IMG/VR virus record: IMGVR_UViG_3300045988_020090
Location: 1 to 17,947 of that record
From: a virus
Strand: one strand, 5' to 3'
Length of the DNA stretch: 17,947 nucleotides
Positions 1-17,947 of this stretch are shown here, piece after piece. The notes under the pieces are model-generated. The model was given only the letters and a program-made list of their open reading frames with translations. It was not told the DNA's origin and ran no database searches. Each line of letters opens with the position of its first letter. Position 1 is the first letter of the stretch. The position numbers and the translations under genes were made by a program.

Positions 1-26
1 TTCCCTACACGACGCTCTTCCGATCT
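1..26. other. Sequencing-adapter remnant (Illumina TruSeq universal/Read-1 adapter tail); not phage DNA
   Basis: Bases 1-26 read TTCCCTACACGACGCTCTTCCGATCT, which I recognise as the 3' part of the Illumina universal adapter. The exact reverse complement closes the window. Confidence 0.95.
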
Positions 27-60
27 GGGCCCCCAGCAGCTATCCTTTTTCCACAACTGT

Positions 61-266
61 TCTGTTGTGTGTTTTGCTATTGCTCTCTGTTCTGTGTTTT
101 TTGTTGTCGTTCTTGTTGTGCTTTTTTTGTCCCGTCTCTGGTGCTTCTTGTGTTTGCTGGCTTTTTTTCGTTGTCGTTTCTGCTTGTTGTTTTGTCTGCG
201 TTTTTTATCTCGTTGTTTTTTTATCGTTTTTTGTGTTGTTGGGTGTGTTGTGTTTTGTGGTGGTGT
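61..266 (+). other. A-depleted T/G-rich tract inside the left ITR (mirror, T-depleted on the + strand, at 17682-17887)
   Basis: My hand count finds 3 A in 206 nt (positions 79, 207, 223) and none at all in 80-206. T runs of 6-7 nt start at 97, 122, 162, 201, 216 and 227. Confidence 0.9.
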
Positions 267-300
267 ATTATGTAATTGTCAGCCAAGGAGTACGGAAAGG

Positions 301-528
301 ATGGTAGTTGAGATGACTGGTATTTCTGTTCGTTTTGAGACTGGTGAGCTGGGCGGAAAGGAGGTTCTTATCTTGCGCTATCGTCTAAGGGGGTTTGTGA
401 TTGTAAAATTCTTCACTGAAACGTATGATTCTTGTTCTGGTGAGGTTTGTTCGGCTATGGATAATATGGTGGGCTTTGTTTATCGCTTGATGGGGTTTGT
501 TTCTGAGCGTCCTGAGTACTCCTATTGA
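301..528 (+). CDS. Hypothetical ITR-encoded protein, 75 aa (left copy)
   Basis: An ATG at 301 is preceded by AAGGAG (285-290) and GGAAAGG (294-300). From MVVEMTGISVRFETGELGGKEV onward the sequence has normal protein-like composition. This contrasts with the C/F/L/V-only upstream part of ORF 67-528, which is a no-stop artefact of the A-free tract. Confidence 0.5.
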   Translation: MVVEMTGISVRFETGELGGKEVLILRYRLRGFVIVKFFTETYDSCSGEVCSAMDNMVGFVYRLMGFVSERPEYSY

Positions 529-550
529 AAAAGAGTGAAGGTGATAGATA

Positions 551-811
551 ATGTGGTGTTTTACTGTTACGCCTGATGATTTTACGGTGTTCGAGTTCAC
601 GTCTGAGTATGTGGGGTCGTATGGGCCATATCCGGCGGATACGTTTAAGAAGGCGCTGGATGGCGTGCTTGACGTTGTTCGCCATGCGTTTGACGGGTTT
701 GATGTGTATGCTGGTTTTGCTTATTCCTCGTTTGACACAAAAACGGGGTTTTTGAATGGTGTTGTTGAAGTGCGTTTGTCGTTTGAAGGGGGATTTGATG
801 ATGGCAAATGA
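551..811 (+). CDS. Hypothetical early protein, 86 aa
   Basis: First ORF after the ITR boundary. A GAAGGTGA Shine-Dalgarno at 537-544 lies 6 nt before the ATG at 551. It is co-directional and tightly packed with its neighbours. I recognise no family. Confidence 0.55.
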   Translation: MWCFTVTPDDFTVFEFTSEYVGSYGPYPADTFKKALDGVLDVVRHAFDGFDVYAGFAYSSFDTKTGFLNGVVEVRLSFEGGFDDGK

Positions 812-1043
812 TGAAGTTGTGGCTGTGGTTCCATCCAAGTTTGAGTCTGGTGATGTGTGTCTGGTGTATTGCCCTTATAATCGGACGTATGAACTGCGGT
901 ATGCGGTGCGGTCTCAGGATGGCGGCGGGCGTCGTTTGGTTTGGTCGGCTGTGACGTTTGATGCGTGTGATTATGCGCAGGTGGCTCATATGTTGGTTGA
1001 TGCGAGGGCGTTGGCTGATACGTCGTTGATTGAGAGGTGTTGA
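798..1043 (+). CDS. Hypothetical early protein, about 81 aa
   Basis: ORF 756-1043. The in-frame ATG pair at 798/801 follows GAAGGGGG (785-792) and overlaps the stop of the upstream gene (809-811), which suggests translational coupling. The start choice is uncertain. Confidence 0.5.
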   Translation: MMANDEVVAVVPSKFESGDVCLVYCPYNRTYELRYAVRSQDGGGRRLVWSAVTFDACDYAQVAHMLVDARALADTSLIERC

Positions 1044-1045
1044 TT

Positions 1046-1555
1046 ATGAAGAGCATTGATGACCGCACAAATTGGTTTGATGATGGTGTTCTGGATGATG
1101 ACCGTGTGCGCCGTGTCGTTCGTGGTCGCCGACGTAATCTGCATTTGCGTGAGTACAATAAAGGTGAGGGTGATTGGGAGACGTTTTGCCGTACTATAGT
1201 ACTGCTCAAGGACTTTTACAAGCCCCAAGGTGGTCAGGTGGCGTTTGCTGACAGTATCGAACATGCGGCGAACATTTGTCTAAGCATCTCGCCAAGTTCG
1301 TCAATGTACGCCGCATTGTCTCGAACTCAGGACATTGAAATGTTGTCCGGGCTTATTTATTGTCCGGCGATGGTGGCGTGGTGCGCGGTCTGTCATGTCA
1401 AGGGCGCGTCGTGCTATGAGATGTGCCGGACGTGGGAGGGTGATGAGTTCGCTCAGACTGTCATCAAAATTGCGTGTCTCCGTTTTGACAATCTGTCCGG
1501 CGTGCAGTATACTGATGGAGACATTACGAGAATGGCACGACAACAGCAATATTAA
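1046..1555 (+). CDS. Hypothetical early protein, 169 aa, with a Cys cluster
   Basis: ORF 1037-1555. The ATG at 1046 follows GAGAGG (1032-1037) and comes just after the upstream stop (1041-1043). It contains CPAMVAWCAVCHVKGASCYEMC, a possible metal-binding cluster. I recognise no family. Confidence 0.6.
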   Translation: MKSIDDRTNWFDDGVLDDDRVRRVVRGRRRNLHLREYNKGEGDWETFCRTIVLLKDFYKPQGGQVAFADSIEHAANICLSISPSSSMYAALSRTQDIEMLSGLIYCPAMVAWCAVCHVKGASCYEMCRTWEGDEFAQTVIKIACLRFDNLSGVQYTDGDITRMARQQQY

Positions 1556-1566
1556 GATAAGGTGGT

Positions 1567-1884
1567 ATGATTATGGCATATATTAAGCGAGCCAAGCACT
1601 ATAGCATTGTGCGCGGCGTTACGCGCAGTGAAAACGGCGAACTCGTGGACACCGAAGTAGTCGTGGATGGCGCGTGCCGCACGCCTGACATGGCTATGAA
1701 AAAAGCCCGTAAGATTAACAGGGACATGCTACCCATGTCCGCCGAGTATCATGCTCAAGCAACGCGCATGGATGAGGCAATCTATTGGGCTAATTGCGAA
1801 TTTGGGGACGATACCATCATCGACTATCCGGGGTCGGTTAACGGCAACGTGGTTGAAGATGATATCATCTCCGAGGAAAAATAA
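1567..1884 (+). CDS. Hypothetical early protein, 105 aa, acidic C-terminus (p6-like only by position and size)
   Basis: AAGGTGG (1559-1565) precedes the ATG at 1567. The C-terminus is VVEDDIISEEK. It sits directly upstream of the SSB candidate, as phi29 gene 6 precedes gene 5 in the direction of transcription. I detect no sequence similarity. Confidence 0.55.
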   Translation: MIMAYIKRAKHYSIVRGVTRSENGELVDTEVVVDGACRTPDMAMKKARKINRDMLPMSAEYHAQATRMDEAIYWANCEFGDDTIIDYPGSVNGNVVEDDIISEEK

Positions 1885-1914
1885 TTACTAACCCTATAAG
1901 GAAAGGCAACACAA

Positions 1915-2352
1915 ATGGCTGACAACGAACTGACCGTAATGAACGGCAACAATTTTGCGGCTAACGGCGCTAACGCCGTATCCCATTTCTTTAACACTGA
2001 CACTATGGATGGCAAAATGGCGCTCTATAACGCCATGCAGACCGCCGACAAGGTAGACGAACATCTTAATGAGCCATTGCATGTGACCAACGTGCTTGCG
2101 CAGGCCATCGAGGTTGCCAACCAAGAGACCGGTGAAATCAACTCATCTACCCGTGTCGTTATCCACGCGGAAGAGGGCGATTTCGCCGCCGCCTCCCCCA
2201 CGCTGGCACACGCTTTCGGTAATCTGTTCGCGATTTTCGGCACGCCGGACACGTGGGACCATCCGCTTGTCCTCAAGGTGGTGGAAAAGAAGAGCCGCCG
2301 TGGATTCAAGTTCTTCGACCTTGAACTAGTGTCGGAAAAAGACCGTGGATAG
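1915..2352 (+). CDS. Candidate single-stranded DNA-binding protein (phage ORF34/Phage_SSB-like), 145 aa
   Basis: AAGGAAAGG lies upstream of the ATG at 1915. The layout resembles phage SSBs of the lactococcal ORF34 type as I remember them: N-terminal NELT..NG, a central V.V....E.....GE core, and a C-terminal FGTPDTWDHPL..V....SRRGFKFFDLELV. Its position matches phi29 gene 5. This is unverified recollection. Confidence 0.4.
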   Translation: MADNELTVMNGNNFAANGANAVSHFFNTDTMDGKMALYNAMQTADKVDEHLNEPLHVTNVLAQAIEVANQETGEINSSTRVVIHAEEGDFAAASPTLAHAFGNLFAIFGTPDTWDHPLVLKVVEKKSRRGFKFFDLELVSEKDRG

Positions 2353-2416
2353 AATATTTGTCTATACCATATGATAGCATGGCAATGTCCCTATAGGGAT
2401 GTTGCCGCCAAACTCA

Positions 2417-2457
2417 CCCCTCGCCGTTTTTTCATCCTTGCGGCGAGGGGTGTTTTA
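2417..2457 (+). terminator. Hairpin with a short T run after the SSB candidate (preceded by a second imperfect hairpin at 2381-2406)
   Basis: CCCCTCGCCG (2417-2426) pairs with CGGCGAGGGG (2441-2450) across a 14-nt loop and is followed by TGTTTTA. GGCAATGTCCCTA/TAGGGATGTTGCC (2381-2406) pairs with two G-U wobbles. Confidence 0.5.
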
Positions 2458-2476
2458 CACTCATAAGGGGGAGGCA

Positions 2477-3421
2477 GTGGCAAAACGTAAAACCAACCGA
2501 CGCGCCAACAATCTGAAACGCAACGCCGCAATCAGGTCGGCACAGGTACGCCGAGAGCAAGCGGTCAGGGATTACAGTACCGGACATCTCCCCAAGCAAA
2601 TCACCGAAACGTTTCTCGGAAAACTCAGCGCCCAACAGCTCGAACAGGTTGCCCGCCGCGTCGGACAGGAATTCGGGGAACAACAGCAAGCCTTGAAGGC
2701 CAGAGATAACGAGCCGTATCAGGTTGTCCCAGATGTGCATATTACGAAACTCGATAGGGAGTTAGCGGCGCGCCCGTTGATTACCGACGCGGAAATCGCC
2801 GCCGCCCCGTCGAAACGTCGGAAGACGTTACGACAGCAACAGCGCCGCCGCATCGAGGTGCGGCAGAAAATCAAACGCGCCCAACAATTCGACGCATTGA
2901 GCATGGCCTGCTACACGGTGGGCGAAATACGTGAAATGGAACGCGCGGGAGAATCCCCGTTTGACGTGTTGGGTACTCATACGGTTGGCGGTTCGGCGCG
3001 CGACGAACTCACACGCAACCGTGCGAACGTGTTCGGCTCGGAGCGCGGCATAAGCCACGCGCGTATGATGATACGAGAGGGAGGCAGGAGGGGACTTGAA
3101 CGTGAGATACTCGAATACGCCGGGCTTATAGGCCGAGCGCCATTACAGGCAGGAGCTAGGCAAATCTCGGGAAGTGAGGGGGTTTCGGATTTTGATAGGG
3201 TCTCGCAACAGCTTGAAGCGTTCGACTCCAACATCGCCCAGAAATTCGCGTCTTTGTCGAACCGTCAAAAACGATGGCTGATAAACAACACGAACTTCAG
3301 CACCGTTGTGCGGGAAGCCTCATGGTATAATGATAAAACACATAAATGGGAGACAAAAGCGGATGCAGGCGATGTAGAGACACGACTTGACGAATGGATG
3401 ACCAGCGCGGCACGACACTAA
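2477..3421 (+). CDS. Candidate terminal (priming) protein, 314 aa
   Basis: ORF 2399-3421. I prefer the GTG at 2477, which follows AAGGGGGAGG (2466-2474), because the longer version would read through the 2417-2450 hairpin. The N-terminus is strongly basic (AKRKTNRRANNLKRNAAIRSAQVRRE) and there is a second basic patch (SKRRKTLRQQQRRRIEVRQKIKR). It lies immediately upstream of the protein-primed polymerase, as phi29 gene 3 does. I see no sequence similarity to phi29 TP. Confidence 0.45.
   Translation: MAKRKTNRRANNLKRNAAIRSAQVRREQAVRDYSTGHLPKQITETFLGKLSAQQLEQVARRVGQEFGEQQQALKARDNEPYQVVPDVHITKLDRELAARPLITDAEIAAAPSKRRKTLRQQQRRRIEVRQKIKRAQQFDALSMACYTVGEIREMERAGESPFDVLGTHTVGGSARDELTRNRANVFGSERGISHARMMIREGGRRGLEREILEYAGLIGRAPLQAGARQISGSEGVSDFDRVSQQLEAFDSNIAQKFASLSNRQKRWLINNTNFSTVVREASWYNDKTHKWETKADAGDVETRLDEWMTSAARH
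3323..3331 (+). promoter_or_regulatory. Perfect extended -10 box TGgTATAAT, about 105 nt upstream of the polymerase start
   Basis: It reads TGGTATAAT at 3323-3331. There is no good -35 (TTGTGC at 3306-3311 is too close). It is one of only two TGnTATAAT matches I found on the + strand, and both precede gene starts. Confidence 0.3.
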
Positions 3422-3436
3422 AAAAAGGATGGAATT

Positions 3437-4897
3437 ATGCGAGAGCGTCGAGCGGCGGCAACAGACGGCGCAACACTCTTGACGGATGACGGCATGGAAC
3501 CATTGACGGCGAACGCCGTCATCCGGCTTACCATGTTCGACTATCATACGCGCGTATGGTGTGCCCATGGGTGGCAGGATATTAAGCCCATAGCCGCCGA
3601 ACTGTTGAAACGACTCCCCTTGCAATCGAATCCAGCCAAGGATGGTGTGTGGGGCACATTTAATATTCGCGGCCACTTCTATAGTTTCCGTGTACGCATG
3701 GGCGGTATCGCCGTGGATTTTGTGGATGTGCGTAATGTCACGCGTGATGATGGCTTGAATGTTTCACGTGAAACATTTGGAGGAACCACCGACTTGGAAA
3801 CCACGTGGAATATCGCGCAGGAATGCGCCGCGCTGAAACTCAGGGGCACGACCATAGCATCAATGGCAATGACCGACTATATCGATGGGGATTACGCCGG
3901 ATTCAAACGTCATTTTCCACCATTGGATAAAGAGGTTTATCATCGGATGCGCCCCGCCTACTATGGGGCGATAGTGTCCAGCAAGCCGGGCGAGTACCGG
4001 GATTGCCGAAGCTGGGATGTAAACAGTCTCTACCCGAGTATCATGCGCGACGCCCCCATGCCGGTAGGCTCGCCAATATGGTACGGCGGGGAATATCAAT
4101 ATGACCCTGATTATCCGCTCCATATCGATGTCATTGCATTTGATGCAAGGTTGAAAACGGGGAAAACGGCGACGCTCACCAATATTCTGCCCGTATGGGG
4201 GTATGAGGGCGAACGTTTGGATAGTACGCTGGGCGTCGTTACCATGCCCGTCACGGATGTGGATTGGGAAACGCTGACCGAAAACTACGATATTCACGTG
4301 TGGGAGCATGTCGGCGGCTGGAAGTTCCGTAAATCGCATGGACTTTATTACACCTACGTTGATAAATGGTTTCACGTGAAACAAACCGCAACCGGAGAGC
4401 GCAGGCAGATGGCGAAACTGTTATTAAACTCACTGGTAGGGAAATTCGGGGCCTCGCTCTACCGGCCCATGTTGCATCCAAAACCGTCTGCGGATGGTGG
4501 CGTGGATTTTACCGTGGACAAACCCGAGTCGGCTAACAGTCTGGCATGGTTGCCGACCGCCGCATATGTCAACGCCTACGGGCGACGAATATTGTCCCGG
4601 GCGATGAACGCGAACGCCGACCGCGTACTCTACGCCGATACCGATGGCATGATATTGGAAGGGTTGGCCGCGCCCTCAGGTATCGAAACGGATGACCGGA
4701 AACTAGGGGCGTGGAAAAACGACCATACCTACGAGAAGCTCCGTATCCTCGGCAATCGCAAATACTGCGGCGTGGAAACAGACGGCGACACCGTCATGCG
4801 TCTGAGCGGCGTGCACCGTGCCGCCCCCATCCCCTATGATGAGTTTCTTCCGGGGGCGCGTCATCTCAATGATGATGGCCACACTTTTATGCTATAA
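3437..4897 (+). CDS. Protein-primed family-B DNA polymerase (phi29 gp2-like), 486 aa
   Basis: - Motif A is WDVNSLYPSIM (D194 at nt 4016).
- Motif B is KLLLNSLVGKFG (K327).
- Motif C is LYADTDGMIL (nt 4631 onward).
- A KxY-like motif is GNRKYCG.
- Long colinear matches to remembered phi29 sequence include FPPLDKEV.. against FPTLSLGLDKEV.., PVGSPIWYGGEYQYDPDYPLHI against PYGEPIVFEGKYVWDEDYPLHI, and KLGAWKNDHTYEKL against KLGYWAHESTFKRA. Confidence 0.93.
   Translation: MRERRAAATDGATLLTDDGMEPLTANAVIRLTMFDYHTRVWCAHGWQDIKPIAAELLKRLPLQSNPAKDGVWGTFNIRGHFYSFRVRMGGIAVDFVDVRNVTRDDGLNVSRETFGGTTDLETTWNIAQECAALKLRGTTIASMAMTDYIDGDYAGFKRHFPPLDKEVYHRMRPAYYGAIVSSKPGEYRDCRSWDVNSLYPSIMRDAPMPVGSPIWYGGEYQYDPDYPLHIDVIAFDARLKTGKTATLTNILPVWGYEGERLDSTLGVVTMPVTDVDWETLTENYDIHVWEHVGGWKFRKSHGLYYTYVDKWFHVKQTATGERRQMAKLLLNSLVGKFGASLYRPMLHPKPSADGGVDFTVDKPESANSLAWLPTAAYVNAYGRRILSRAMNANADRVLYADTDGMILEGLAAPSGIETDDRKLGAWKNDHTYEKLRILGNRKYCGVETDGDTVMRLSGVHRAAPIPYDEFLPGARHLNDDGHTFML
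3758..3777. repeat. 20-bp perfect palindrome AATGTTTCACGTGAAACATT (copy 1 of the GTTTCACGTGAAAC motif)
   Basis: Read directly and self-complementary over all 20 nt. It lies inside the polymerase gene and encodes NVSRETF. Confidence 0.9.
4369..4382. repeat. 14-bp perfect palindrome GTTTCACGTGAAAC (copy 2)
   Basis: Read directly. It lies inside the polymerase gene but in a different codon phase from copy 1 (tgg ttt cac gtg aaa caa = WFHVKQ). Confidence 0.9.
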
Positions 4898-4898
4898 T
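4890..4898 (+). promoter_or_regulatory. Perfect extended -10 box TGcTATAAT overlapping the polymerase stop codon
   Basis: It reads TGCTATAAT at 4890-4898, and the polymerase TAA is at 4895-4897. The -35 is weak. The predicted start near 4905 would transcribe the structured spacer and possibly the late genes. Confidence 0.4.
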
Positions 4899-4904
4899 AT
4901 CCGG

Positions 4905-5064
4905 TAGCGGGGTGTGCGTCCCAAGTCGATTCGATGGCCCGACCGTAAGGCAAGTCGGTAAGGCGATTCGGTCGGATGTAGACGTGCGTAGCCAGCGCCC
5001 AGCGACGGCAAGGGAACCCGCACAGCCTAGCAAACCGGCATGACGGCGTGATTGCCGTCATGCC
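4905..5064 (+). ncRNA. Candidate structured RNA (packaging pRNA analogue, or the 5' leader of the late operon)
   Basis: - This is a 187-nt gap with no ORF.
- An 11-bp perfect stem joins GGCATGACGGC (5037-5047) to GCCGTCATGCC (5054-5064) with loop GTGATT.
- A 7-bp stem joins CCGACCG (4939-4945) to CGGTCGG (4969-4975).
- Tandem 13-mers are TAAGGCAAGTCGG and TAAGGCGATTCGG (4946-4971).
- A tandem pair is CCAGCGC/CCAGCGA (4992-5005).
- GACGGC occurs twice (5004, 5042), and both copies are complementary to GCCGTC (5054). Confidence 0.3.
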
Positions 5065-5084
5065 ACTGACTTTAAGAGGTGATT

Positions 5085-5423
5085 ATGGACGATACCGAGG
5101 ACACCGAGCCGGACACCACGCCAGACGCCGAGCCGGACACGACCGCCGACGACAATACGCCGAACCCGGAGCTTGAAACGCAGGACAATGGCGAACCGGA
5201 GGATGCGGGCGACGACAAGGACGCCGACATGGCCAACCGTCTCAGCGCTTTGGAAGCGACCGTAGCGGAACTCTCCAAAACCATTGAGGCGATGCGCGAC
5301 GCCGCAGCCGACCACGTGCTGAACGATGGCCCGGACGGCGACACGACGCCGGAATCGGCTGAAATGACAGACGATGACTACAACGGCACTTACAGTACGT
5401 TCGATGATTTGTTTGAAGACTAA
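5085..5423 (+). CDS. Putative scaffolding protein (phi29 gp7-like by position), 112 aa
   Basis: AAGAGG (5074-5079) lies 5 nt before the ATG at 5085. The protein is very acidic (DDTEDTEPDTTPDAEPDTTADD...), with a central helical-looking segment (ANRLSALEATVAELSKTIEAMRDAAA). It is small and directly upstream of the capsid gene. Confidence 0.5.
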   Translation: MDDTEDTEPDTTPDAEPDTTADDNTPNPELETQDNGEPEDAGDDKDADMANRLSALEATVAELSKTIEAMRDAAADHVLNDGPDGDTTPESAEMTDDDYNGTYSTFDDLFED

Positions 5424-5445
5424 TGATTAGGAAGGATTGATTATC

Positions 5446-7182
5446 ATGTCAACTACTCCAGTGGTGACGCCGAAACAGCAGTTGCGACCGCTCACTGAAT
5501 TCAACAACGCGCAGATTCTCAATATGATTCGCAACGAGGCGTCGCCCGAATATCAGCGACGTATGCCCTCGGCCACCCAGATGAACATGGATAGGCAGAT
5601 GGCCACCCTCATGTCATCTACTCAGCTCAAGAACGAGTTTTATGCAGCGCTGGTGAACCGCATTGGCGGCACCTATGTGAACACATGGCGCTGGAACAAT
5701 CCGTTGAGTGTTTTCCAGCGTGCATCTCAGATGTATGGCGACACGTGGCAGGAAATCGCCGTAGGTATGCCGCTCGCACAGGTGTACGACCCGGACGCGG
5801 AATACTTGGGCGCGGATAATTTCCGTAAGTGGAAAATCGACGTAGACTCGCTGTATCATCGTCTGGATTTCGCCCACTTCTATCCGGCGACCACGGATGA
5901 CAAGACGCTCCAGCGCGCGTTCACCTCCGAAACCGGTCTGGCTTCGCTCACCTCGCAGATTCTCACCTCCTGTTACAATGCCGCCGAGGTTGACTTGTTT
6001 GAGGCCATGTGCCACCAGTTCGTTGAGTATGCGAAACTCGGCGGATACTGGCGCGTGCACATGAACAATGATTTGAACAACATGGGCAGTTCGGAAACCG
6101 ACGCGCGCGACATGTTGCGCCAGATTCGCGCATGGGCCGACACGCTGAAATTTGTATCCACTCGGTATAATGCGCGGCACATGCCGACATTTGCCCGCCC
6201 GGATGAGCTTGTGTTGTTCTGCTCCCCTGAAGTCAAGTCTGCGCTTGACGTGCAGGGTCTCGCCACGGTGTTCCAGCGTACGGATGCGGAGCCGACCATC
6301 GACCGGATTATCGTCATCCCGCAGGACAGGTTTGGCATGGACGGCGTGCAAGCCATCCTCACTACGGACAAGTTCCTGATTGACATTCCCGTTATCAACG
6401 AGATGACCCAGCAGACGAACCCGGTTAACATCAATTCGGTCAACCATTATCTACACGTCCAGCACATTATCAGCGTGTCCGGATTTGCCCCCGCCGTCAT
6501 GTTCTGGACGGGCGCGGGTTCCACCGCAAGCGTAGTGACGCCTACCGGTACGACGGCCAAGACGCCGACCTTCCAACTCAAGCTTGCCATGTACGGCGGT
6601 GGCGCGACTACGCCGGAGAATGTGGTGCGTGGCGGCGCTGTGCAGGTCACCGCCGATACGACCATCTCCAACGATGGTAAGGCCACGTTCCGCTCGGATG
6701 CTGTCGAGTACGCCATCGGTGATACCGCCAAGCCGAAGAGCGATTACACATACATTTCGCCCACCGGCGTGCTGGTGGTCGGCCTTGATGAGCCGAACAC
6801 CATTATTCCGATTACGGCCACGGCCCTGTATACAAATCCGGCGACACCTGAGGTGCCGGGCACCGTGTCCGCCGCCTTGGACGTGCCGGTGGTTGGCGAG
6901 GGTGTCATCGGATTCAATCCGTCGATTATCGCATCCATTGCCGTGACCGTCCCGGCAGTGACCGTGAATCATACGGCACAGGCGACCGCTACGGCGACCA
7001 TGATTGACGGCCGGACCGCCGACGTGACCGCGCAGGCCGCGTGGACGTCCGACACCCCAGTCAACGCCACGGTGTCCGAGTCGGGTGTCGTTGCGGGCGT
7101 CAGGGCGGGCTCGTCCAATATCACCGCAACCCTGTTCGGCGTGTCCGATAAGAAGAGCGTGACCGTGACGGCGGCCTCGTGA
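5446..7182 (+). CDS. Major capsid protein (phi29 gp8-like) with a C-terminal Big_2 Ig-like domain, 578 aa
   Basis: AGGAAGGA (5429-5436) precedes the ATG at 5446. Matches to remembered phi29 gp8 include FYAALVNRIG...NNPLSVF against FITSLVDRIG...NNPLKKF. Another is DDKTLQRAFTSE...ILTSCYNAAEVDLFE against DDSLKTAFVSW...IINAIYNSAEVDEYE. The C-terminal segment ...AAWTSDTPVNATVSESGVVAGVRAGSSNITATLFGVSDKKSVTV (about 6928-7179) is a typical Big_2 pattern. Confidence 0.9.
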   Translation: MSTTPVVTPKQQLRPLTEFNNAQILNMIRNEASPEYQRRMPSATQMNMDRQMATLMSSTQLKNEFYAALVNRIGGTYVNTWRWNNPLSVFQRASQMYGDTWQEIAVGMPLAQVYDPDAEYLGADNFRKWKIDVDSLYHRLDFAHFYPATTDDKTLQRAFTSETGLASLTSQILTSCYNAAEVDLFEAMCHQFVEYAKLGGYWRVHMNNDLNNMGSSETDARDMLRQIRAWADTLKFVSTRYNARHMPTFARPDELVLFCSPEVKSALDVQGLATVFQRTDAEPTIDRIIVIPQDRFGMDGVQAILTTDKFLIDIPVINEMTQQTNPVNINSVNHYLHVQHIISVSGFAPAVMFWTGAGSTASVVTPTGTTAKTPTFQLKLAMYGGGATTPENVVRGGAVQVTADTTISNDGKATFRSDAVEYAIGDTAKPKSDYTYISPTGVLVVGLDEPNTIIPITATALYTNPATPEVPGTVSAALDVPVVGEGVIGFNPSIIASIAVTVPAVTVNHTAQATATATMIDGRTADVTAQAAWTSDTPVNATVSESGVVAGVRAGSSNITATLFGVSDKKSVTVTAAS

Positions 7183-7188
7183 TATGAT

Positions 7189-7216
7189 GAGAGGGTGGCC
7201 GGTTGGCTACCCTCTC
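7189..7216 (+). other. Hairpin 1 of the post-capsid spacer
   Basis: GAGAGGGTGGCC (7189-7200) pairs with GGCTACCCTCTC (7205-7216). The stem is 12 bp with one G-U and the loop is GGTT. No T run follows. Confidence 0.7.
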
Positions 7217-7238
7217 TCACGGTGTGATGCGATACAAG

Positions 7239-7271
7239 GCCCGGAGCGCAAGCCACGTGAGCGCTCCGGGC
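7239..7271 (+). other. Hairpin 2 of the post-capsid spacer (loop contains CACGTG)
   Basis: GCCCGGAGCGC (7239-7249) pairs with GCGCTCCGGGC (7261-7271). The stem is 11 bp and the loop is AAGCCACGTGA. Confidence 0.7.
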
Positions 7272-7304
7272 ACTGTGACAGTCGCCTAATCTGCGATATA
7301 ATAA

Positions 7305-7340
7305 AAGGGAGTGTTTCACGTGAAACACTCCCTTCTTTAT
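7305..7340 (+). terminator. 30-bp perfect palindrome with a T-rich tail; terminator and/or operator (copy 3 of the GTTTCACGTGAAAC motif)
   Basis: AAGGGAGTGTTTCAC/GTGAAACACTCCCTT (7305-7334) is perfectly self-complementary and is followed by CTTTAT. The core GTTTCACGTGAAAC is at 7313-7326. A TATAAT hexamer sits at 7287-7292, just upstream. Confidence 0.65.
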
Positions 7341-7353
7341 GAAAAGGGATAGT

Positions 7354-9603
7354 ATGCTGAGAGATATCAACCCTAACGTTGAGGCGACGTTTAACTGGGC
7401 TCAATGGACGCCCAACACGTCGCTGAAACTCTGTAACGTGCCGTGGGACAGTAGTTACCGTGACCTGGCCCGGTTCGAATCACCGCAGAAACAACAGGAA
7501 TGGTTTGACCGAAGGCCCGGCATTGACAGGGTGCATGGAGTCATGCACATGTTCGGCCAACCCGTGCGCGTCGAACTGCCATTTAACGAGGCGTCCAACT
7601 ACAACTATGTCGTGGTGTATAACGATTACCCTGACTTGGAGTCGCCACGGTATTGGTATTATTTCATCAACCACGTGGATTACATCAATGCGTACACTAC
7701 TCAGCTCACTGTACAGTTGGACGTTTGGCAGTCGTTCCAGCATGTACTTAGGTTTGGTTCATGCTATGTGGTGCGAGGCCATATCGGCATTGCCAACGAA
7801 AACCAGATGACCGATTATGGTCGCAGTTATCTCGCACTACCCGAAGGGCTGGACACCGGTAGCGAAATGGTAACGGTGAACCAACAGTACAAGTCTCTTA
7901 TCGGCATGGACGGGAAAAATCTGAATTACGGCGTAATAGTCGTGAGCACGGTAGATTTGTCAGCGAACGCGGGCAGTCAGGAAAAACCGTCTCTCACTAC
8001 TGCGGGCGGCTCTCTGTTTGAGAACATGGCTAACGGTGCTGAAATACTGTACTTTAAGGACATCCAGTCCGTCCAAGTGTTTATGGGGGTGGGCTCTACT
8101 TTTTCATGGATAACACAGGGTATTGTAAACATGTACATGATACCCTCTTTGGATGATGACTTTCTTAAGCAATCCGGCTATGTCGTAGATAAGCTGTTTG
8201 GGAGAACACTCCCTTCGGAATTAAATAATCGTATCTACCGTTTCCCCCAGTCGGCCACAAATGCGCCCAGCAGATATGAAGACATTATTACCATTAATGA
8301 TTTTCGTGATAATTTTAATATCCCCAAACGTTATAAAAACCTTAAAAAACTCAAATGCTACCCCTATTCCACTGTTGAATGCACTTGCTTGAATGGCACT
8401 AATATCACCTATAAGCCCGAAAATATCCAAAGTGATAATCTGGTTATCAGAGAGGTGCATAATTACGCGCCCAATGGCGCGCGCTTGAACTTTTACCCGG
8501 TTGGGTACAATAAGGCGGGTGCAAGCGAGATCGCTCCTCTTGATGAAAACAATGGGTTGCCCATTGATAGCGGGGAAATGTTGGACGCCGCGTTTGGCAT
8601 CAGCAATTTCCCTCAATTTGTGATAGTCAACAATGGCGCACAGTTGGCAATGGCAAACAGTGCCTACACTCGTTCCTACAGTCAACAGTCCGCTGACTGG
8701 GCGTACCAAAAAGCGCAGATGGGCATCAGCCAGTCTCTTGCGGCCACGGCCATGCAAAACCAGTACAACACCCAAGCCAACAAACTCGCTATCGGCAACC
8801 GCAACGCCAATAACGCGATACAAGCGACCTCGCTTAACACCAGTCTGGACAGCACGACGTATATCAACAATCAGCGGGCTGACCTCGCACAGCTGAATAA
8901 CGTGTTTAACGGCGTGGTCGGGGTGGCGGGTAACGCCGCTTCGGGCAATGTCGGGGGCGCGGTATCGGCATTGGGCGGTGCGGTCATGAATGGTGTCAAC
9001 ACTGAAGCAAACCGCAGTATCAACAATACCGCCGCCCAACTTTCCACGGCGAACTCGCTGAGTACCAACGCGGCCACAACAAGTCAGGCCAACACATACG
9101 GCTCTCAGACTACAGCGCTTTCAAACCAGTTGGCCCAGAACATGGCGGATATGAACGCGGATTACGCGCAACGTTCCGCGTTCGGAGACTATCAAAACAC
9201 CATTGCGGGTATCAATGCACAGGTACAGCAGATGCAATTAACACCCCCGACCACATCTGGAGCCATCGGCGGAGACGGTTTTAACCTCGCGAACGGTATT
9301 GTCGGGGTGTTGGTTCGATTCAAGACGTGCGCACCCTCAGCTCTGCGGAGCGTCGGAGAGTACATGTTGCGTTACGGGTATTTTATCCAACGTTTCATCA
9401 CGCCGCCGCAATCGCTGGAATGTATGACAAAATTCACCTACTGGCAGATGCAAGAGTGTTACGTGCGAGGTGATTTGCCCGAGCAGTATCGGCAGACCAT
9501 TAAAGGCGTGTTCGAGTCTGGGGTTACTGTATGGACTAACCCGGATGATATCGGCGTGACCGATTGGGCGGATAACGACCCATTGCCGGGCATCTCGTTC
9601 TAG
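7354..9603 (+). CDS. Tail knob / distal tube protein (phi29 gp9-like), 749 aa
   Basis: I prefer the ATG at 7354 (AAAGGGA at 7343-7349) over 7339, which abuts the hairpin. Matches to remembered phi29 gp9:
- CNVPWDSSYRD...WF against ADVPFSNDYKN...WF.
- RYWYYFINHVDY...QLDVWQSF against KWFYAFVTELEF...EIDVLQTW.
- KCYPYSTVE against MMYPYCVTE.
- The C-terminal LRYGYFIQR....GDLPEQYRQTIKGVFESGVTVWTNPDDIG against HKYGYKINR....[28 protein letters not shown]. Confidence 0.88.
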   Translation: MLRDINPNVEATFNWAQWTPNTSLKLCNVPWDSSYRDLARFESPQKQQEWFDRRPGIDRVHGVMHMFGQPVRVELPFNEASNYNYVVVYNDYPDLESPRYWYYFINHVDYINAYTTQLTVQLDVWQSFQHVLRFGSCYVVRGHIGIANENQMTDYGRSYLALPEGLDTGSEMVTVNQQYKSLIGMDGKNLNYGVIVVSTVDLSANAGSQEKPSLTTAGGSLFENMANGAEILYFKDIQSVQVFMGVGSTFSWITQGIVNMYMIPSLDDDFLKQSGYVVDKLFGRTLPSELNNRIYRFPQSATNAPSRYEDIITINDFRDNFNIPKRYKNLKKLKCYPYSTVECTCLNGTNITYKPENIQSDNLVIREVHNYAPNGARLNFYPVGYNKAGASEIAPLDENNGLPIDSGEMLDAAFGISNFPQFVIVNNGAQLAMANSAYTRSYSQQSADWAYQKAQMGISQSLAATAMQNQYNTQANKLAIGNRNANNAIQATSLNTSLDSTTYINNQRADLAQLNNVFNGVVGVAGNAASGNVGGAVSALGGAVMNGVNTEANRSINNTAAQLSTANSLSTNAATTSQANTYGSQTTALSNQLAQNMADMNADYAQRSAFGDYQNTIAGINAQVQQMQLTPPTTSGAIGGDGFNLANGIVGVLVRFKTCAPSALRSVGEYMLRYGYFIQRFITPPQSLECMTKFTYWQMQECYVRGDLPEQYRQTIKGVFESGVTVWTNPDDIGVTDWADNDPLPGISF

Positions 9604-9618
9604 TGCTATACTGGAGGC

Positions 9619-10575
9619 ATGTCTAGGTCGAGGAAAAATCAGAATCGTAGGGGCGGCGCGTTGCACCCGCGTGGCAATTACGCCAAGGCACGCGCCGCCG
9701 ACCTTGACGCAATGTATTATCACCTGCTGACCGAACTGGCACTGAACCGGTTCAGTTGGCGGGGGCTACCGCCTACAGTGGATGAACGATGGTTGGAAAT
9801 GTGTCTGTGTGAATACGGGTGCGCGTTGTTTTTCGAGGACAAACGTATGGGCCGGTTCCTCGCTACGCAAGCTGGCTATCAAGGCCGATTGAACGTGTAT
9901 GATAATCCAACGTGCTTTGAGCCGGTGGGCGTCAACTATCATTACAGGCAACTCAAGGCGGGCCGTGAATGCATTCCGATTTGGGATAACCGGATGCGCA
10001 TGGGTTTCAAGGATATCTTATGGCAGTACGCGAGACGCCTTGCCGACATTGACAAGGCATATGACGTGAACTTGGAGAGCCTGAAACTGCCGACCATCAT
10101 CACCGCCGACCCGCGCACCAAGCTCACCGTGCAGAACATGTTGCAACAGCGGCAGGACGGGCAGGATTATATCATCGGCTATGATTCACTCGACCCCGGT
10201 AGCATGTTCCAACCGTGGCCGAACACGACACCTTACCTGTTGGATAAGTTCGTCCAGCAAAAAACGCAAGTGACTAATGAGGTACTGGGATATTTGGGCA
10301 TCCAATCCAGCGGCACCGAGAAAAAAGAGCGGCTCATTTCCGATGAGGTGGCGCAGTCCAACGAGAAAACGGACGTGTTCCGCCTGAGTTTTCTCAAGGC
10401 CCGGCAGGCGGCGGCGACGGAAATTAACCGGTTGTGGCCGCAACTTAACATCTGGGTGGAGTATGCGGACGCGCAAAGCTCCGGCGTGCCCAACGCGCTG
10501 GATTCCAGCGCGACCGGTACGACGGATATTGACATGCCCGCCTCGTATGATGCGGGTATTGGAGGTGTGTTGTAA
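9619..10575 (+). CDS. Head-tail connector / portal (phi29 gp10-like upper collar), 318 aa
   Basis: The basic N-terminus SRSRKNQNRR resembles phi29 ARKRSNTYRS. FSWRGLPPTVDERWLE matches FEWENLPPTINPSFLE, and GTEKKERLISDEVAQSNEKTD matches [21 protein letters not shown]. GGAGG (9613-9617) lies only 1 nt before the ATG, which is unusual spacing. Confidence 0.92.
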   Translation: MSRSRKNQNRRGGALHPRGNYAKARAADLDAMYYHLLTELALNRFSWRGLPPTVDERWLEMCLCEYGCALFFEDKRMGRFLATQAGYQGRLNVYDNPTCFEPVGVNYHYRQLKAGRECIPIWDNRMRMGFKDILWQYARRLADIDKAYDVNLESLKLPTIITADPRTKLTVQNMLQQRQDGQDYIIGYDSLDPGSMFQPWPNTTPYLLDKFVQQKTQVTNEVLGYLGIQSSGTEKKERLISDEVAQSNEKTDVFRLSFLKARQAAATEINRLWPQLNIWVEYADAQSSGVPNALDSSATGTTDIDMPASYDAGIGGVL

Positions 10576-10808
10576 TGATGACCTGTGACGCCATGGTAAG
10601 GCTTGTACGTGAAATGTATGAAGTCGCCGATAAAATCAGTAAGGCGGAAGAAGCTCTGGACAGCTATGAAAACGGGGGCTTGTCCATGTCCGGCCAAGCC
10701 GCTGGTCTACTGGAAAAACAAGTTGTCGCAATGAAAACATACTATGATATCGTCGCCGCACGTATTGGCCACCAAACGAGGGAGGCCACATATGGCACAG
10801 AGTTTTAG
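10575..10808 (+). CDS. Hypothetical small protein, 77 aa, between connector and lower collar
   Basis: The ATG overlaps the connector stop (TAATG at 10573-10577) and the 3' end overlaps the next gene by 17 nt. The composition is helical and charged. I recognise no family. Confidence 0.5.
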   Translation: MMTCDAMVRLVREMYEVADKISKAEEALDSYENGGLSMSGQAAGLLEKQVVAMKTYYDIVAARIGHQTREATYGTEF

Positions 10809-11586
10809 CGCTTACGCGATGACAACGCCCGGCGAGTACACGGAAACCCTCGGCAATCTCATTGCATTCGGATACGACACGGACGCCAGACTGCATCTCA
10901 GCGACGACTACTACCCGATTTACCGAGAAGACCATCGCGCCGAATTGAATGAAAAGATCGTCCGCCATTACGCGCTTAGGGAGATTGGTCAGGAAACCGC
11001 CCAACAGTTCATTTTTTACTTGGGGATGACGATGGCGGAAATCATGCCATATTTTAATGAGCGCTACAGGACGCTAGCGTTGAAATATGACCCATTGAAC
11101 ACTATGGAAATAGTCAGTGAAAGCCTGTCCAATACCGTAGCCCAGTCCAGCGGCAAAACCAGCGCCTCTCAGGATAGTGCGACCCGAAGCTCCTCGGACG
11201 GCACCAGCTCAAGTAGCACCAAGTCCCAGTCTTACGACTCGGAAGTGCCCGCAACCGGCGTGCAAGGTGATTTTGCCCGATACGCGACTCATGCCAATCA
11301 GGCGCAAGCAGATACGGACGGCAGTAGCCATAGCACGCAAGACACCTCCTCTCAGTCCCATAGTACATCCAGCACGGAATGGCAACACGACGCTACGGAT
11401 GGGAGCACCAAATCCCACACGTCGGGCCGCTCCCAGTCCGCCATGAGCCTGATACAGGAGTACCGACAGGCGATTATCAATGTGGACATGGAAATTGTGC
11501 GGAGCCTCGAACCGTGTTTCATGCAAATATGGGGCTCGTATGATACTATTTTCAGTAACTGCCATAACTATGGAGAATGGGAGTAA
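10792..11586 (+). CDS. Lower collar protein (phi29 gp11-like), 264 aa
   Basis: ORF 10744-11586. The ATG at 10792 follows GAGGGAGG (10778-10785). The segment REIGQETAQQFIFYLGMTMAEIMPYFNERY fits the lower-collar signature I remember (REIG.ET...F......M.EIMPYYN.LY). Its position after the connector agrees. There is a central S/T/Q/D-rich low-complexity stretch. Confidence 0.72.
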   Translation: MAQSFSAYAMTTPGEYTETLGNLIAFGYDTDARLHLSDDYYPIYREDHRAELNEKIVRHYALREIGQETAQQFIFYLGMTMAEIMPYFNERYRTLALKYDPLNTMEIVSESLSNTVAQSSGKTSASQDSATRSSSDGTSSSSTKSQSYDSEVPATGVQGDFARYATHANQAQADTDGSSHSTQDTSSQSHSTSSTEWQHDATDGSTKSHTSGRSQSAMSLIQEYRQAIINVDMEIVRSLEPCFMQIWGSYDTIFSNCHNYGEWE

Positions 11587-11588
11587 TC

Positions 11589-12224
11589 ATGGCTGCCATT
11601 AATGCGCTGATTCCACGGCAACGCCTGTCTGACGGGGTACCCACGTCCGTACCGTTCACGTATCGGGACGGATTGACCACGTTGCAATTGATTGAATGCC
11701 TACGCCACAATCTCGACACCCTCCAATGCGATTTGAGCAGGCTGGAGAAGGCCACGTCCGACCTCGCGGCATCTGTGGACAAGACTCTTGCGGATACCGC
11801 AACCCAGCTCAACAAGAATATGGCCGCGTTGCGCGCGGAACTGCTGGCCCTGATACACGAAATGGAGCAACAGGGCGTGGCAACCTCCCCCGTGTACGGC
11901 ACCACGCAACCGCTCGGGGACGTGCTTGGCGGCATATACGACAATGCGCGCAATCATGGACTGTTCTGGGGTGATTACGATAACATGCAGTTGACCGCTC
12001 AGGAATACGATGGGCTTACGCTTGGTGCCCGCGAATACGATTTACGCGCCACCGCCGTGGATAATTGCGTGCCCGGTGATTTTCCGGGCCGCCCCCAATT
12101 CCCGTATGGAAAATCCATGCCCGAAAACCCGCCCGCTGACATGGCGTATATCACGCAATCCGAAGCGGATGCACGCTATATCGAACGCAACCCGACCGCA
12201 GACAATTTCGATAAGAAAGGATAA
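11589..12224 (+). CDS. Hypothetical structural protein with a coiled-coil segment (tail appendage module), 211 aa
   Basis: ORF 11577-12224. The ATG at 11589 follows GGGAG (11579-11583). A heptad-like segment reads LDTLQCDLSRLEKATSDLAASVDKTLADTATQLNKNMAALRAELLALIHEME. The structural role is inferred only from its location between the lower collar and the fibre. Confidence 0.45.
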   Translation: MAAINALIPRQRLSDGVPTSVPFTYRDGLTTLQLIECLRHNLDTLQCDLSRLEKATSDLAASVDKTLADTATQLNKNMAALRAELLALIHEMEQQGVATSPVYGTTQPLGDVLGGIYDNARNHGLFWGDYDNMQLTAQEYDGLTLGAREYDLRATAVDNCVPGDFPGRPQFPYGKSMPENPPADMAYITQSEADARYIERNPTADNFDKKG

Positions 12225-12230
12225 TCACCC

Positions 12231-13706
12231 ATGTCCACAACACAGCACACCGGACACTACAATCTGCCGACGTTTGGAGATAATCCGAACGACCGTCCGT
12301 CATGGCGTGGCGATTTCACCGACGCAATGACGAAAATCGATAATCAGATGTACGCCAACGCGACCAACATCACCACGGCGACGGCGGCGGCGAACAACGC
12401 GACCACGGCGGCGAGCAAGGCAGCCGAGACGGCGGGCGGCGCACAGTCCACAGCCGATGACGCCGTGGCCCGATTGGACGCGCTCGGCGCAACCGGCAAT
12501 ACGGCGGCAGGTCAGCTTAAAACCAAGATCGACACCACGTCCACCGGGCTGAATGCGGTGAAATCCGACCTCAGCGTCTTCAAGACCTCCACCAATGGGA
12601 ATATTGCCTCATTGCAGAGCAAGAATACGGAAATCGAGAATAATTTAACCAGTATCACTTCATCGGTTCACGCCAACACAACCGGCATAACGGGCATTGA
12701 AGCGAATTTGAACGCGCTTCACGCCGATTCCACCACTAACGCGGCAACGCTATATAACACCATTCAGAACAGTTCTCGTGTTCTTGGCGTTAATCAGCCG
12801 TTCGTGTCTCGCGGCTCAAATATCATCGTGACTTTTGGTGATTCCTACGCCGACACCACGAACACTAGAAGCTGGGCATACATGCTCGCTCAAAAGCTGG
12901 GGTGGACGTTGCATAATTACGCAAAAAGCGGTGCCGGATACATCAGTCCGAACACCACTTACATGAGCGAGTTCAGCACAGCCAAGGCGGATACGTCCTA
13001 TGATCATGATGATGTATCGTTGGTGGTCATTGGAGGCTCTCGTAACGGCAACGACGGGTATTCGGGGACAGTCAAAACAGCCGCGCTGGAACTGTTTCAA
13101 GGAGTAAGCGGTGAATATCCCAATGCGCGAATCATCGCGGTACCGTTGCTATGGGATAAAACCCCGGTGTCAGGGTATTGGCGTTATAACGCCGCAAGCA
13201 TTGACGAGGCGGCGATACTGGCCGGAGTGGAATCCATACCGTGGGCATGGACGTGGAATCTTGGACGCGAAAACGCATTCGATAGTGAGAATATCCACCC
13301 CAACGAGCTGGGTACCAACGTCATCGTAAACTATATCATGCGATACATGCTCGGCGCGTACAATGGCCGACATGAGGTGTTCGTGTGGCGACCCGAGTCA
13401 AACCCTGCGGAATTTGTTCTTACCGTGGACGCAAGCGCGGGAACTATCTCATATGGTCTGTCGGTGGCGGGAGACGTCACGCCAGCGAAGTACACGGACG
13501 TGAGCGGACTGCCAATGTGGGCGTGGAACGCGTCGGATGAGACAAATCAGGGGCGGGCGTGGGTGGCGTCCATCACCAACGGCGCTACAAACACAACACT
13601 GTTCAAAATTGGCACTGACGGCCATTTTGGATGGCAGGGTTACACGACCAACCCCACGGCAACCCCTAACGGATTGGCTGGAGCGCAATTTACCAGAGCG
13701 TGGTAA
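12231..13706 (+). CDS. Tail fibre / appendage protein with an SGNH (GDSL) hydrolase domain, 491 aa
   Basis: - The N-terminal fibre-anchor-like motif is HYNLPTFGDNPNDRPSWRGDFTDAMTKID.
- A long A/T/N-rich coiled region follows.
- SGNH block I is IIVTFGDSYAD (Ser codon at 12843).
- Block III is VVIGGSRNGND.
- Block V is DSENIHPNELG (His codon at 13296). Confidence 0.75.
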   Translation: MSTTQHTGHYNLPTFGDNPNDRPSWRGDFTDAMTKIDNQMYANATNITTATAAANNATTAASKAAETAGGAQSTADDAVARLDALGATGNTAAGQLKTKIDTTSTGLNAVKSDLSVFKTSTNGNIASLQSKNTEIENNLTSITSSVHANTTGITGIEANLNALHADSTTNAATLYNTIQNSSRVLGVNQPFVSRGSNIIVTFGDSYADTTNTRSWAYMLAQKLGWTLHNYAKSGAGYISPNTTYMSEFSTAKADTSYDHDDVSLVVIGGSRNGNDGYSGTVKTAALELFQGVSGEYPNARIIAVPLLWDKTPVSGYWRYNAASIDEAAILAGVESIPWAWTWNLGRENAFDSENIHPNELGTNVIVNYIMRYMLGAYNGRHEVFVWRPESNPAEFVLTVDASAGTISYGLSVAGDVTPAKYTDVSGLPMWAWNASDETNQGRAWVASITNGATNTTLFKIGTDGHFGWQGYTTNPTATPNGLAGAQFTRAW

Positions 13707-13723
13707 CACGATTGGTGTTAACG

Positions 13724-13751: not shown

Positions 13752-13760
13752 ACTGTTATT

Positions 13761-14975: not shown

Positions 14976-14977
14976 CA

Positions 14978-15015: not shown

Positions 15016-15027
15016 TTGTATGGTAGT

Positions 15028-17371: not shown

Positions 17372-17401
17372 CTATATCTTAGCTCAAAACTCCTGCTCAG
17401 A

Positions 17402-17921
17402 TATCACCTTCACTCTTTTTCAATAGGAGTACTCAGGACGCTCAGAAACAAACCCCATCAAGCGATAAACAAAGCCCACCATATTATCCATAGCCGAACA
17501 AACCTCACCAGAACAAGAATCATACGTTTCAGTGAAGAATTTTACAATCACAAACCCCCTTAGACGATAGCGCAAGATAAGAACCTCCTTTCCGCCCAGC
17601 TCACCAGTCTCAAAACGAACAGAAATACCAGTCATCTCAACTACCATCCTTTCCGTACTCCTTGGCTGACAATTACATAATACACCACCACAAAACACAA
17701 CACACCCAACAACACAAAAAACGATAAAAAAACAACGAGATAAAAAACGCAGACAAAACAACAAGCAGAAACGACAACGAAAAAAAGCCAGCAAACACAA
17801 GAAGCACCAGAGACGGGACAAAAAAAGCACAACAAGAACGACAACAAAAAACACAGAACAGAGAGCAATAGCAAAACACACAACAGAACAGTTGTGGAAA
17901 AAGGATAGCTGCTGGGGGCCC
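17402..17921. repeat. Right inverted terminal repeat (ITR), 520 bp
   Basis: Exact reverse complement of 27-546 (position p pairs with 17948-p). Confidence 0.92.
17420..17647 (-). CDS. Hypothetical ITR-encoded protein, 75 aa (right copy, identical to 301-528)
   Basis: This is the mirror image of 301-528 within the right ITR. It is the only plausible minus-strand gene in the window and it reads inward toward the 17336-17371 terminator. Confidence 0.5.
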   Translation of the reverse strand: MVVEMTGISVRFETGELGGKEVLILRYRLRGFVIVKFFTETYDSCSGEVCSAMDNMVGFVYRLMGFVSERPEYSY

Positions 17922-17947
17922 AGATCGGAAGAGCGTCGTGTAGGGAA
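17922..17947. other. Sequencing-adapter remnant (reverse complement of the same adapter)
   Basis: Bases 17922-17947 read AGATCGGAAGAGCGTCGTGTAGGGAA, the reverse complement of 1-26. Confidence 0.95.

Follow-up and report, generated by a model that had tools for sequence, protein, structure and literature searches.

A shrunken, degenerate exonuclease-like domain in the protein-primed DNA polymerase of a phi29-like Bifidobacterium phage

DNA polymerases of the phi29 type are the textbook single-subunit replicases, uniting protein priming, processivity, strand displacement and proofreading. The virus record IMGVR_UViG_3300045988_020090, analyzed over its positions 1 to 17,947 (this whole stretch of 17,947 nucleotides is referred to below as the window), contains an open reading frame (ORF) for a 486-residue polymerase of this type (3437..4897, + strand) with a short N-terminal part, and a preliminary description made from the sequence alone had proposed that the Exo I, Exo II and Exo III catalytic residues are absent from it, leaving a replicase without proofreading or with altered metal ligands. 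The question raised by this locus is what has become of the exonuclease domain and why its remainder is retained. From the profile alignments, structural models and selection analysis described here, we infer, with a probability of about 0.7, that the N-terminal domain is an exonuclease domain that is dead for proofreading and is kept as a scaffold for strand displacement.

Identity of the polymerase and of its N-terminal domain

The assignment of the ORF to the protein-primed family B polymerases (pPolBs) was made with Pfam, phmmer and structural comparison. Pfam DNA_pol_B_2 matched with 116.6 bits (cut-off 25.8) over residues 137-341 alone, PHROG 1907 matched with an E value of 3e-55, and phmmer against the phi29 DNA polymerase (DNAP) chain 1xhx gave an E value of 6e-44, aligning residues 155-444 to phi29 206-501 in an unbroken alignment that covers TPR1 and TPR2. 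Motif A (DVNSLYP, 4016..4036, +) is invariant, with D194 and Y199 aligned to phi29 D249 and Y254, and motif C (YADTDG, 4631..4648, +; D401 and D403) was placed by alignment to phi29 and relatives. In addition, the KxY motif reads RKY, and a beta-hairpin at residues 345-361 occupies the TPR2 position in an AlphaFold2 (AF2) model of the whole chain. By alignment, then, the polymerase half is intact, with motifs A and C, KxY, TPR1 and TPR2 all present. The protein is also 93% identical to P0003, which is named in NCBI 'MAG: DNA polymerase [Bifidobacterium breve]'. Judged by its sequence, the ORF encodes the replicase of a Bifidobacterium phage of the phi29-like, protein-primed kind, and priming on a terminal protein is predicted. 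The 486-residue ORF of the preliminary description was thus borne out, as were its placement of motif A at residue 194 against about 249 in phi29 (D194 against D249 in the alignments) and its shortened N-terminus, which is about 55 residues shorter than that of phi29.

A short N-terminus could in principle be an artefact of assembly or annotation (a frameshift, a wrong start or a missing exon), and the unusual length, but nothing else, speaks for this. An in-frame TAA (3419-3421) lies 15 nt upstream of the polymerase ATG, an AGGA ribosome-binding site lies 7 nt 5' of the ATG, and the same 486-residue length is shared by more than 80 protein clusters from independent samples. Furthermore, residues 1-24 are conserved and under purifying selection, confident AF2 models place these N-terminal residues in strands beta1-beta3, and the same architecture is present in cultured phage genomes. 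Given the upstream stop codon, the ribosome-binding site and the more than 80 relatives of equal length, no upstream exon or frameshift that would restore a canonical N-terminus was found, and the artefact explanation is effectively refuted.

The nature of the N-terminal domain is not apparent from standard searches. Residues 1-165 had no match in Pfam, phmmer against the Protein Data Bank (PDB) left the domain unmatched and aligned residues 155-444, and hhalign with the single N-domain sequence returned a probability of 14%, indicating that family profiles were needed. When a profile of 19 members of the short family was aligned by hhalign with a profile of 20 canonical pPolBs, the probability was 100% (E 1e-74, residues 25-475), and an alignment restricted to the N-domain (24 short-family against 11 canonical sequences) gave a probability of 98% with an E value of 4e-13. 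The AF2 model of the whole chain has a pLDDT of 90.5 and a pTM of 0.87, and Foldseek ranked phi29 DNAP first (2pyj_B, E 9e-40, TMq 0.85). In this model the N-domain has the order beta1 (4-9), beta2 (13-16), beta3 (19-22), a helix (25-31), beta4 (37-42) and a second helix (46-59), and a second AF2 model of residues 1-165, built from an alignment of short-family sequences only, reproduced the same secondary structure with a pLDDT of 87.2. Searched against the PDB, the N-domain model had significant matches to phi29 DNAP chains only (E ~1e-4, TMq 0.62-0.68), and all of its matches in BFVD at E ≤ 0.01 were DNA polymerases, mostly from phi29-like or other protein-primed viruses and including those of BadAztec1, GA-1, Mycoplasma P1 and a tectivirus. 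These alignments and models argue that the N-terminal 154 residues (3437..3898, +) are a shrunken homologue, by descent and by fold, of the phi29 DEDDy exonuclease domain. About 55 residues have been lost from the domain, through shortening of the beta2-beta3 hairpin and through a 27-residue deletion before the Exo III helix.

Exonuclease motifs in the window protein and its relatives

The register of the Exo motifs was taken from MAFFT alignments (including L-INS-i) and from hhalign. In phi29, D12, E14, D66 and D169 are the ligands of two metals, while orientation of the attacking water falls to Y165 and stabilization of D169 to K143 (PMC4974454). For Exo I, the sole candidate carboxylate in the window protein is D10 (3464..3466, +), at the end of strand beta1, which is followed by G11 and by A12 where a Glu is expected, so that the DxE of Exo I is missing. 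Global hhalign paired D10 with phi29 D12, at low confidence, and placed E14 together with the long beta2-beta3 hairpin in a 14-residue gap, whereas L-INS-i paired D10 with E14 and not with D12; either pairing leaves one Exo I carboxylate, not two. The D10-G11 pair is nearly invariant in the family and lies in the beta1-beta2 turn.

The Exo II region was found in the segment T38-D48 (TRVWCAHGWQD, 3548..3580, +), which comprises a remnant of the Exo II strand and the start of the following helix and aligns in both MAFFT and hhalign to phi29 ADLYFHNLKFD. Three of four alignments pair D48 with phi29 D66, with the remaining one (L-INS-i) shifted by a single residue, and the phi29 N62 position is held by G45 or H44. 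The Exo II pattern Nx2-3(F/Y)D is absent, the corresponding HGWQD being without the Asn and the aromatic residue. The strings on which the preliminary description relied, F34-D35-Y36-H37-T38 followed by RVWCAHGW (nt 3536-3574) and F75-N76-I-R-G-H80 (nt 3659-3676), are present, but their reading does not hold. D35-x-H37 had been taken as Exo I with His in place of Glu, which is a misassignment since RVWCAHGWQD aligns to the Exo II strand and not to RVWAYGY of phi29; likewise, N76 and H80 had been taken as Exo II with His in place of Asp, and FNIRGH aligns instead to phi29 IISRMGQ (residues ~93-99).

For Exo III, the alignments converge on T117-T123 (3785..3805, +), which contains both the deletion site and the remnant TDLETT. 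The 27-residue gap falls between T117 and T118, so that the phi29 region from K143 to Y165 is gone and neither the Yx3D nor the Kx2hxA (K143) pattern can be formed, while TDLETT aligns to phi29 NDIQII with D119 in register with D169. The earlier statement that neither Tyr nor Asp is in the Exo III register therefore stands for Tyr, Y165 being deleted, and fails for Asp. Apart from DLETT (119-123), a string scan of the exonuclease-equivalent region 1-139 found no DxE, Nx2-3[FY]D or Kx2hxA, with DxE absent throughout residues 1-118; DLETT is the sole DxETT string and by alignment lies in the Exo III region. A Yx3D string, YIDGD (Y148-D152, 3878-3892), is nearly invariant in the short family 29 residues past D119. 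It was rejected as an Exo III motif, because it aligns to phi29 ~F198-T203, outside the exonuclease core.

In sum, the canonical motifs are missing as had been claimed, and neither profile nor structural alignment puts a canonical residue at every Exo position (no equivalent exists for E14, N62, K143 and Y165), but D48, D119 and probably D10 are kept. With equivalents of D66, D169 and probably D12, the protein is less fully stripped than the preliminary description had claimed; its hedged conclusion of lost proofreading or altered metal ligands stands, although the by-eye alignment behind it does not.

The distribution of these residues was compared in a 40-sequence alignment of 11 canonical polymerases, among them those of phi29 and of the actinophages Curie, Voltaire and Prophecy, and 29 short or intermediate members. 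D12, E14, T15, N62, F65 (Y in P0102), D66, K143, Y165 and D169 are present in 11/11 canonical polymerases, and the complete set of Exo residues is present in 0/29 of the others. The window protein has D10, D48 and D119 and is without equivalents of E14, T15, N62, F65, S122, K143 and Y165, of which T15, F65 and S122 (and also N62) are ligands of single-stranded DNA (ssDNA) in phi29. The relatives share this degeneration or exceed it. P0095-99 have neither D48 nor D119, and the same is true of the cultured, viable phages BD811P2, BP1 and BadAztec1. C42, H44, G45, W46 and D48 (C-x-HGW-x-D) are invariant only in the window's subclade and are gone from P0095-99 as well as from the cultured phages.

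When 1.84 billion representative proteins were searched with an N-domain profile, only 30 matched at E ≤ 0.001, the full-length members among them being 454-496 residues long. Two of the matches, P0139 and P0144, are repeat proteins and were set aside as false positives. Four longer pPolBs of 511-629 residues (P0141, P0142, P0145 and P0146) were matched too. Degenerate Exo motifs are found in these as well, but P0142 still has its Exo III region undeleted, with a Glu at the D169 position and no Tyr. In a neighbor-joining tree of the polymerase domain, the split between the canonical polymerases together with these four and the short family had 97.5% bootstrap support, and the four branch between the canonical and short families. 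They may represent intermediates in degeneration, and the tree fits a progressive degeneration within a single lineage. Among cultured phages, the closest relatives are the Bifidobacterium phages BD811P1-3, BP1 and the BadAztec/BadAargau group, at 33-37% identity. The annotated 445-residue polymerase of BD811P2 (L001 3387-4724) lacks the first three beta-strands, which are present in BP1 (471 residues) and in P0140; either its start was mis-called or the protein has been truncated further in nature. The polymerases of Clostridium phages CI55P1/CI461P1 were considered as further degenerate cases and rejected, that of CI55P1 being canonical (DFETT, HNLKFD, YQHAD).

Selection on the domain and readings of its function

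The N-domain is under strong purifying selection and is not decaying. Relative to the P0003 gene (locus L010), dN/dS was 0.085 in the N-domain and 0.082 in the polymerase domain, and among 84 close relatives residues 1-154 had a mean pairwise identity of 89.1%, compared with 87.4% for residues 155-486. Residues that in phi29 touch the downstream template from within the exonuclease domain (Y101 and T189; PMC6351526) are retained as well. Y82 (3680..3682, +) corresponds to Y101, which stacks on the downstream template, and is invariant among the short and canonical sequences of two sets and nearly so in the wider one, with I or F in six relatives; T139 (3851..3853, +) corresponds to T189, in the exonuclease-polymerase linker loop contacting the template, and is invariant in 40/40 sequences.

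In phi29 the exonuclease domain forms a strand-separating tunnel together with TPR2, palm and fingers (PMC6351526), and mutation of its metal ligands also harms strand displacement. Under our favored reading, the N-domain, which descends from a DEDDy proofreading exonuclease, would no longer have a competent active site but would still line one side of the tunnel around the downstream template, the other parts being TPR2, palm and fingers; this tunnel gives phi29-type enzymes helicase-free strand displacement and processivity. The 17.9-kb genome would then be copied without intrinsic 3'-5' proofreading, by nucleotide selection alone. With the nucleotide discrimination of 1e4-1e6 reported for phi29 (PMC6351526), this would amount to about 0.02-2 errors per 17.9-kb copy, a load that is probably tolerable for so small a genome.

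Several observations weigh against a complete loss of the site. The three carboxylates of the window's own subclade stand at positions aligned to D12, D66 and D169, and seven subclade representatives with identities down to 46% have no more than four invariant acidic residues in the N-domain (D10, D48, D97 and D152), where just 20% of all positions do not vary. Three of the four (D10, D48 and D97) map to the phi29 exonuclease-site residues D12, D66 and D121. Alignment further suggests that these residues may cluster in space, and residues 1-24 align to the Exo I strand at low confidence (hhalign).

Such observations would be expected if the subclade kept a variant active site, built from D10, D48 and D119/E121 with H44 perhaps as general base, that retains residual 3'-5' exonuclease activity or has become a repurposed pocket. 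D10, D48 and D119 align to D12, D66 and D169, the four residues D10, H44, D48 and D119 are invariant in 84/84 close relatives, the N-domain has no larger invariant patch than C-x-HGW-x-D across the subclade, down to 46% identity, and the share of invariant acidic residues at exonuclease-site positions (3/4) stands against the 20% invariant background. These figures are a hint of remaining constraint on part of the pocket. Nevertheless, there is no equivalent of E14, Y165 or K143, which act in nucleophile positioning and D169 stabilization (PMC4974454), nor of the ssDNA ligands T15, N62, F65 and S122. P0093 keeps the motif yet groups with relatives in which D48 and D119 are lost (P0095-97), position 119 is Pro in P0094, and the cultured members of the family are without D48 and D119. 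Finally, D10-G11 lies in a tight beta-turn and is kept where the other Asp residues are lost, suggesting a structural role. A variant active site is thus unlikely in our view. We also regard as quite unlikely the related possibility that the pocket (D10, H44, D48, D97 and D119/E121) has been re-engineered, either as a His-assisted nuclease or for binding of the 3' end, a metal or the terminal protein; if it has, a pocket binding one of these would tune initiation or strand displacement in a miniaturized replicase.

Proofreading could also be supplied in trans, by a host exonuclease (e.g., one resembling DnaQ) or by a small phage protein, in which case fidelity would not be reduced. Trans-acting proofreading subunits exist in cellular replicases, and the window contains ORFs without an assignable function (67-528, 1037-1555, 1567-1884, 5079-5423 and 11577-12224). 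However, no window ORF resembles an exonuclease family in searches with Pfam (E up to 1), PHROGs and hhalign against the pPolB exonuclease profile, and a phi29-type enzyme encloses the primer terminus and needs no accessory factors (PMC6351526). The thumb tip, which in phi29 coordinates polymerase-exonuclease switching (PMC1475753), is shortened too. Trans proofreading by a phage protein is therefore unsupported, and proofreading in trans by any means, a host factor included, we consider highly improbable.

The degenerate exonuclease domain is accompanied by changes in the polymerase half. In motif B (KLLLNSLVGK, 4415..4444, +), Val334 (4436-4438) replaces the conserved Tyr (phi29 Y390), which together with Y254 helps to form the nascent base-pair pocket (PMC4974454). 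In the 40-sequence alignment, loss of this Tyr co-varies with loss of the Exo motifs, the position being V, I, T, A or S in 28/29 exonuclease-degenerate members and Tyr in 11/11 canonical ones. The C-terminus (residues 444-486, 4766-4894) is also reduced relative to phi29, by about 14 residues at the thumb tip, the region that holds phi29 K555, K557 and Q560, and by about 17 residues after KxY; PMC1475753 describes the phi29 thumb as helping to coordinate synthesis and degradation. A separate variation was seen in motif C, where the first Asp (phi29 D456, YxDTDS) is Asn (Y-x-NTDG) in P0094, P0099, P0125-127, P0131 and P0140 and in the cultured, viable phages BD811P2 (L001) and BP1 (L002), and His in P0145.

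A lineage of viable and apparently abundant phages without the catalytic set would mean that proofreading is dispensable for an 18-kb protein-primed genome. Several protein clusters of the window's group hold hundreds to thousands of member sequences, indicating that such phages are common in public data. The short family would then show the minimal scaffold that is required of the exonuclease domain, and the Tyr-to-Val change in motif B and the shorter thumb tip may show how the enzyme compensates. With a proofreading-dead enzyme, phages of an important infant-gut commensal would also be expected to mutate at a raised rate.

Genome context and comparison with known systems

The window is the complete linear genome of a phi29-like podophage, a gut Bifidobacterium phage. 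Its gene order is the SSB (single-stranded DNA-binding protein) gene (1915-2352), a 340-residue ORF (2399..3421, +), the polymerase gene (3437-4897) and the major capsid protein gene (5437-7182), followed downstream by tail, connector, packaging ATPase and lysis genes. The 340-residue ORF is a terminal-protein candidate by position only, directly 5' of the polymerase gene, the place (SSB, ORF, polymerase) taken in Curie, Voltaire, Prophecy and phi29 by the annotated terminal protein. It shares 31% identity with BD811P2 gp7, had no Pfam or PHROG match and no similarity to exonuclease domains, and was without a match to the Voltaire terminal protein in BLASTP. This ORF and the polymerase ORF share one reading frame, separated by the TAA and five codons (window 3419-3439). 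The two are also in frame in the close relative L010 and out of frame in BD811P2, BP1 and BadAztec1, and because of the latter the shared frame is probably a coincidence and not a read-through fusion.

The genome ends in an inverted terminal repeat of 562 nt (left, 1..562; right, 17386..17947), the two copies being 99% complementary. The first 26 nt are sequencing adapter: TTCCCTACACGACGCTCTTCCGATCT, which we take to be the 3' part of the Illumina TruSeq universal adapter, is found at both window ends (1-26 and 17922-17947). The phage genome proper thus spans 27-17921, with a true terminal repeat of about 536 bp starting GGGCCCCC, and since the adapter was ligated straight onto either end, there is good reason to take these ends for the physical termini of the linear genome. 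Each repeat contains an ORF of 153 residues (67-528, +, and 17420-17881, -) without a Pfam or PHROG match, which, if the gene is real, would be present in two copies per genome. In the tail region, a 491-residue ORF (12231-13706) has a weak match to the GDSL-lipase/acylhydrolase family (Pfam PF13472, E 1.4e-6, 29.4 bits, below the 32.9 cut-off) and may encode a tail-associated esterase.

Among known systems, the closest point of reference is the phi29 DNA polymerase (gp2; PDB 1XHX, 2PYJ), with which the window protein shares the protein-priming class, the fold (TMq 0.85), motifs A and C, KxY, TPR1 and TPR2. The setting of the gene is also common to both: a linear genome of roughly 18 kb that ends in terminal repeats, with an ORF in the terminal-protein position and an SSB gene beside the polymerase gene. 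In contrast, the window polymerase is 89 residues shorter, it is missing E14, N62, K143, Y165 and the ssDNA ligands, it carries the 27-residue deletion, Val in place of Y390 and a shorter thumb tip and post-KxY segment, and the inverted repeats are 536-562 bp long compared with 6 bp in phi29. The polymerases of the cultured Bifidobacterium phages BD811P1-3, BP1, BadAztec1/2/4 and BadAargau2 belong to the same short family (445-471 residues, 33-37% identity), with the same gene order, Exo motifs that are equally or more degenerate, and a place on the same side of the 97.5% split; they differ in being without equivalents of D48 and D119, which the window's subclade keeps. These proteins are annotated merely as 'DNA polymerase' or 'hypothetical protein'.

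Natural loss of proofreading in protein-primed family B polymerases is also seen in Mavirus and polinton-like viruses (PMC11161782), but these are eukaryotic varidnaviruses in which most of the exonuclease domain has been deleted and a helicase gained. The window phage is a tailed phage that has kept a folded remnant under selection, and no helicase gene was detected among the window ORFs in Pfam and PHROG scans. Eukaryotic Pol alpha carries an inactivated exonuclease fold. In Pol zeta (PMC7544198) and the phage enzyme divPolA1 (PMC11348598), the exonuclease fold is likewise kept structurally while its catalytic carboxylates are replaced. The window protein resembles this class by functional analogy, in that the fold is kept, the catalytic set is incomplete and the domain is under purifying selection, but Pol alpha, Pol zeta and divPolA1 are RNA/DNA-primed family B or family A polymerases and not protein-primed, strand-displacing enzymes.

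Engineered exonuclease-minus phi29 mutants (D12A/D66A, N62D) polymerize without proofreading (PMC6351526), but they have a full-size domain and are impaired in strand displacement. Since the phages that carry the natural short-domain enzyme are viable, this enzyme must have adapted. For practical use it is a candidate for a compact, strand-displacing polymerase that is naturally exonuclease-minus. In the open-access literature we found no account of exonuclease loss in phi29-like tailed phages, including the cultured Bifidobacterium phages, and a 2024 review of phi29-like phages lists Bifidobacterium phages and is silent on exonuclease loss. Family B polymerases without proofreading are already known elsewhere; what is new here is a tailed-phage pPolB in which a miniaturized, non-canonical exonuclease domain is retained under selection.

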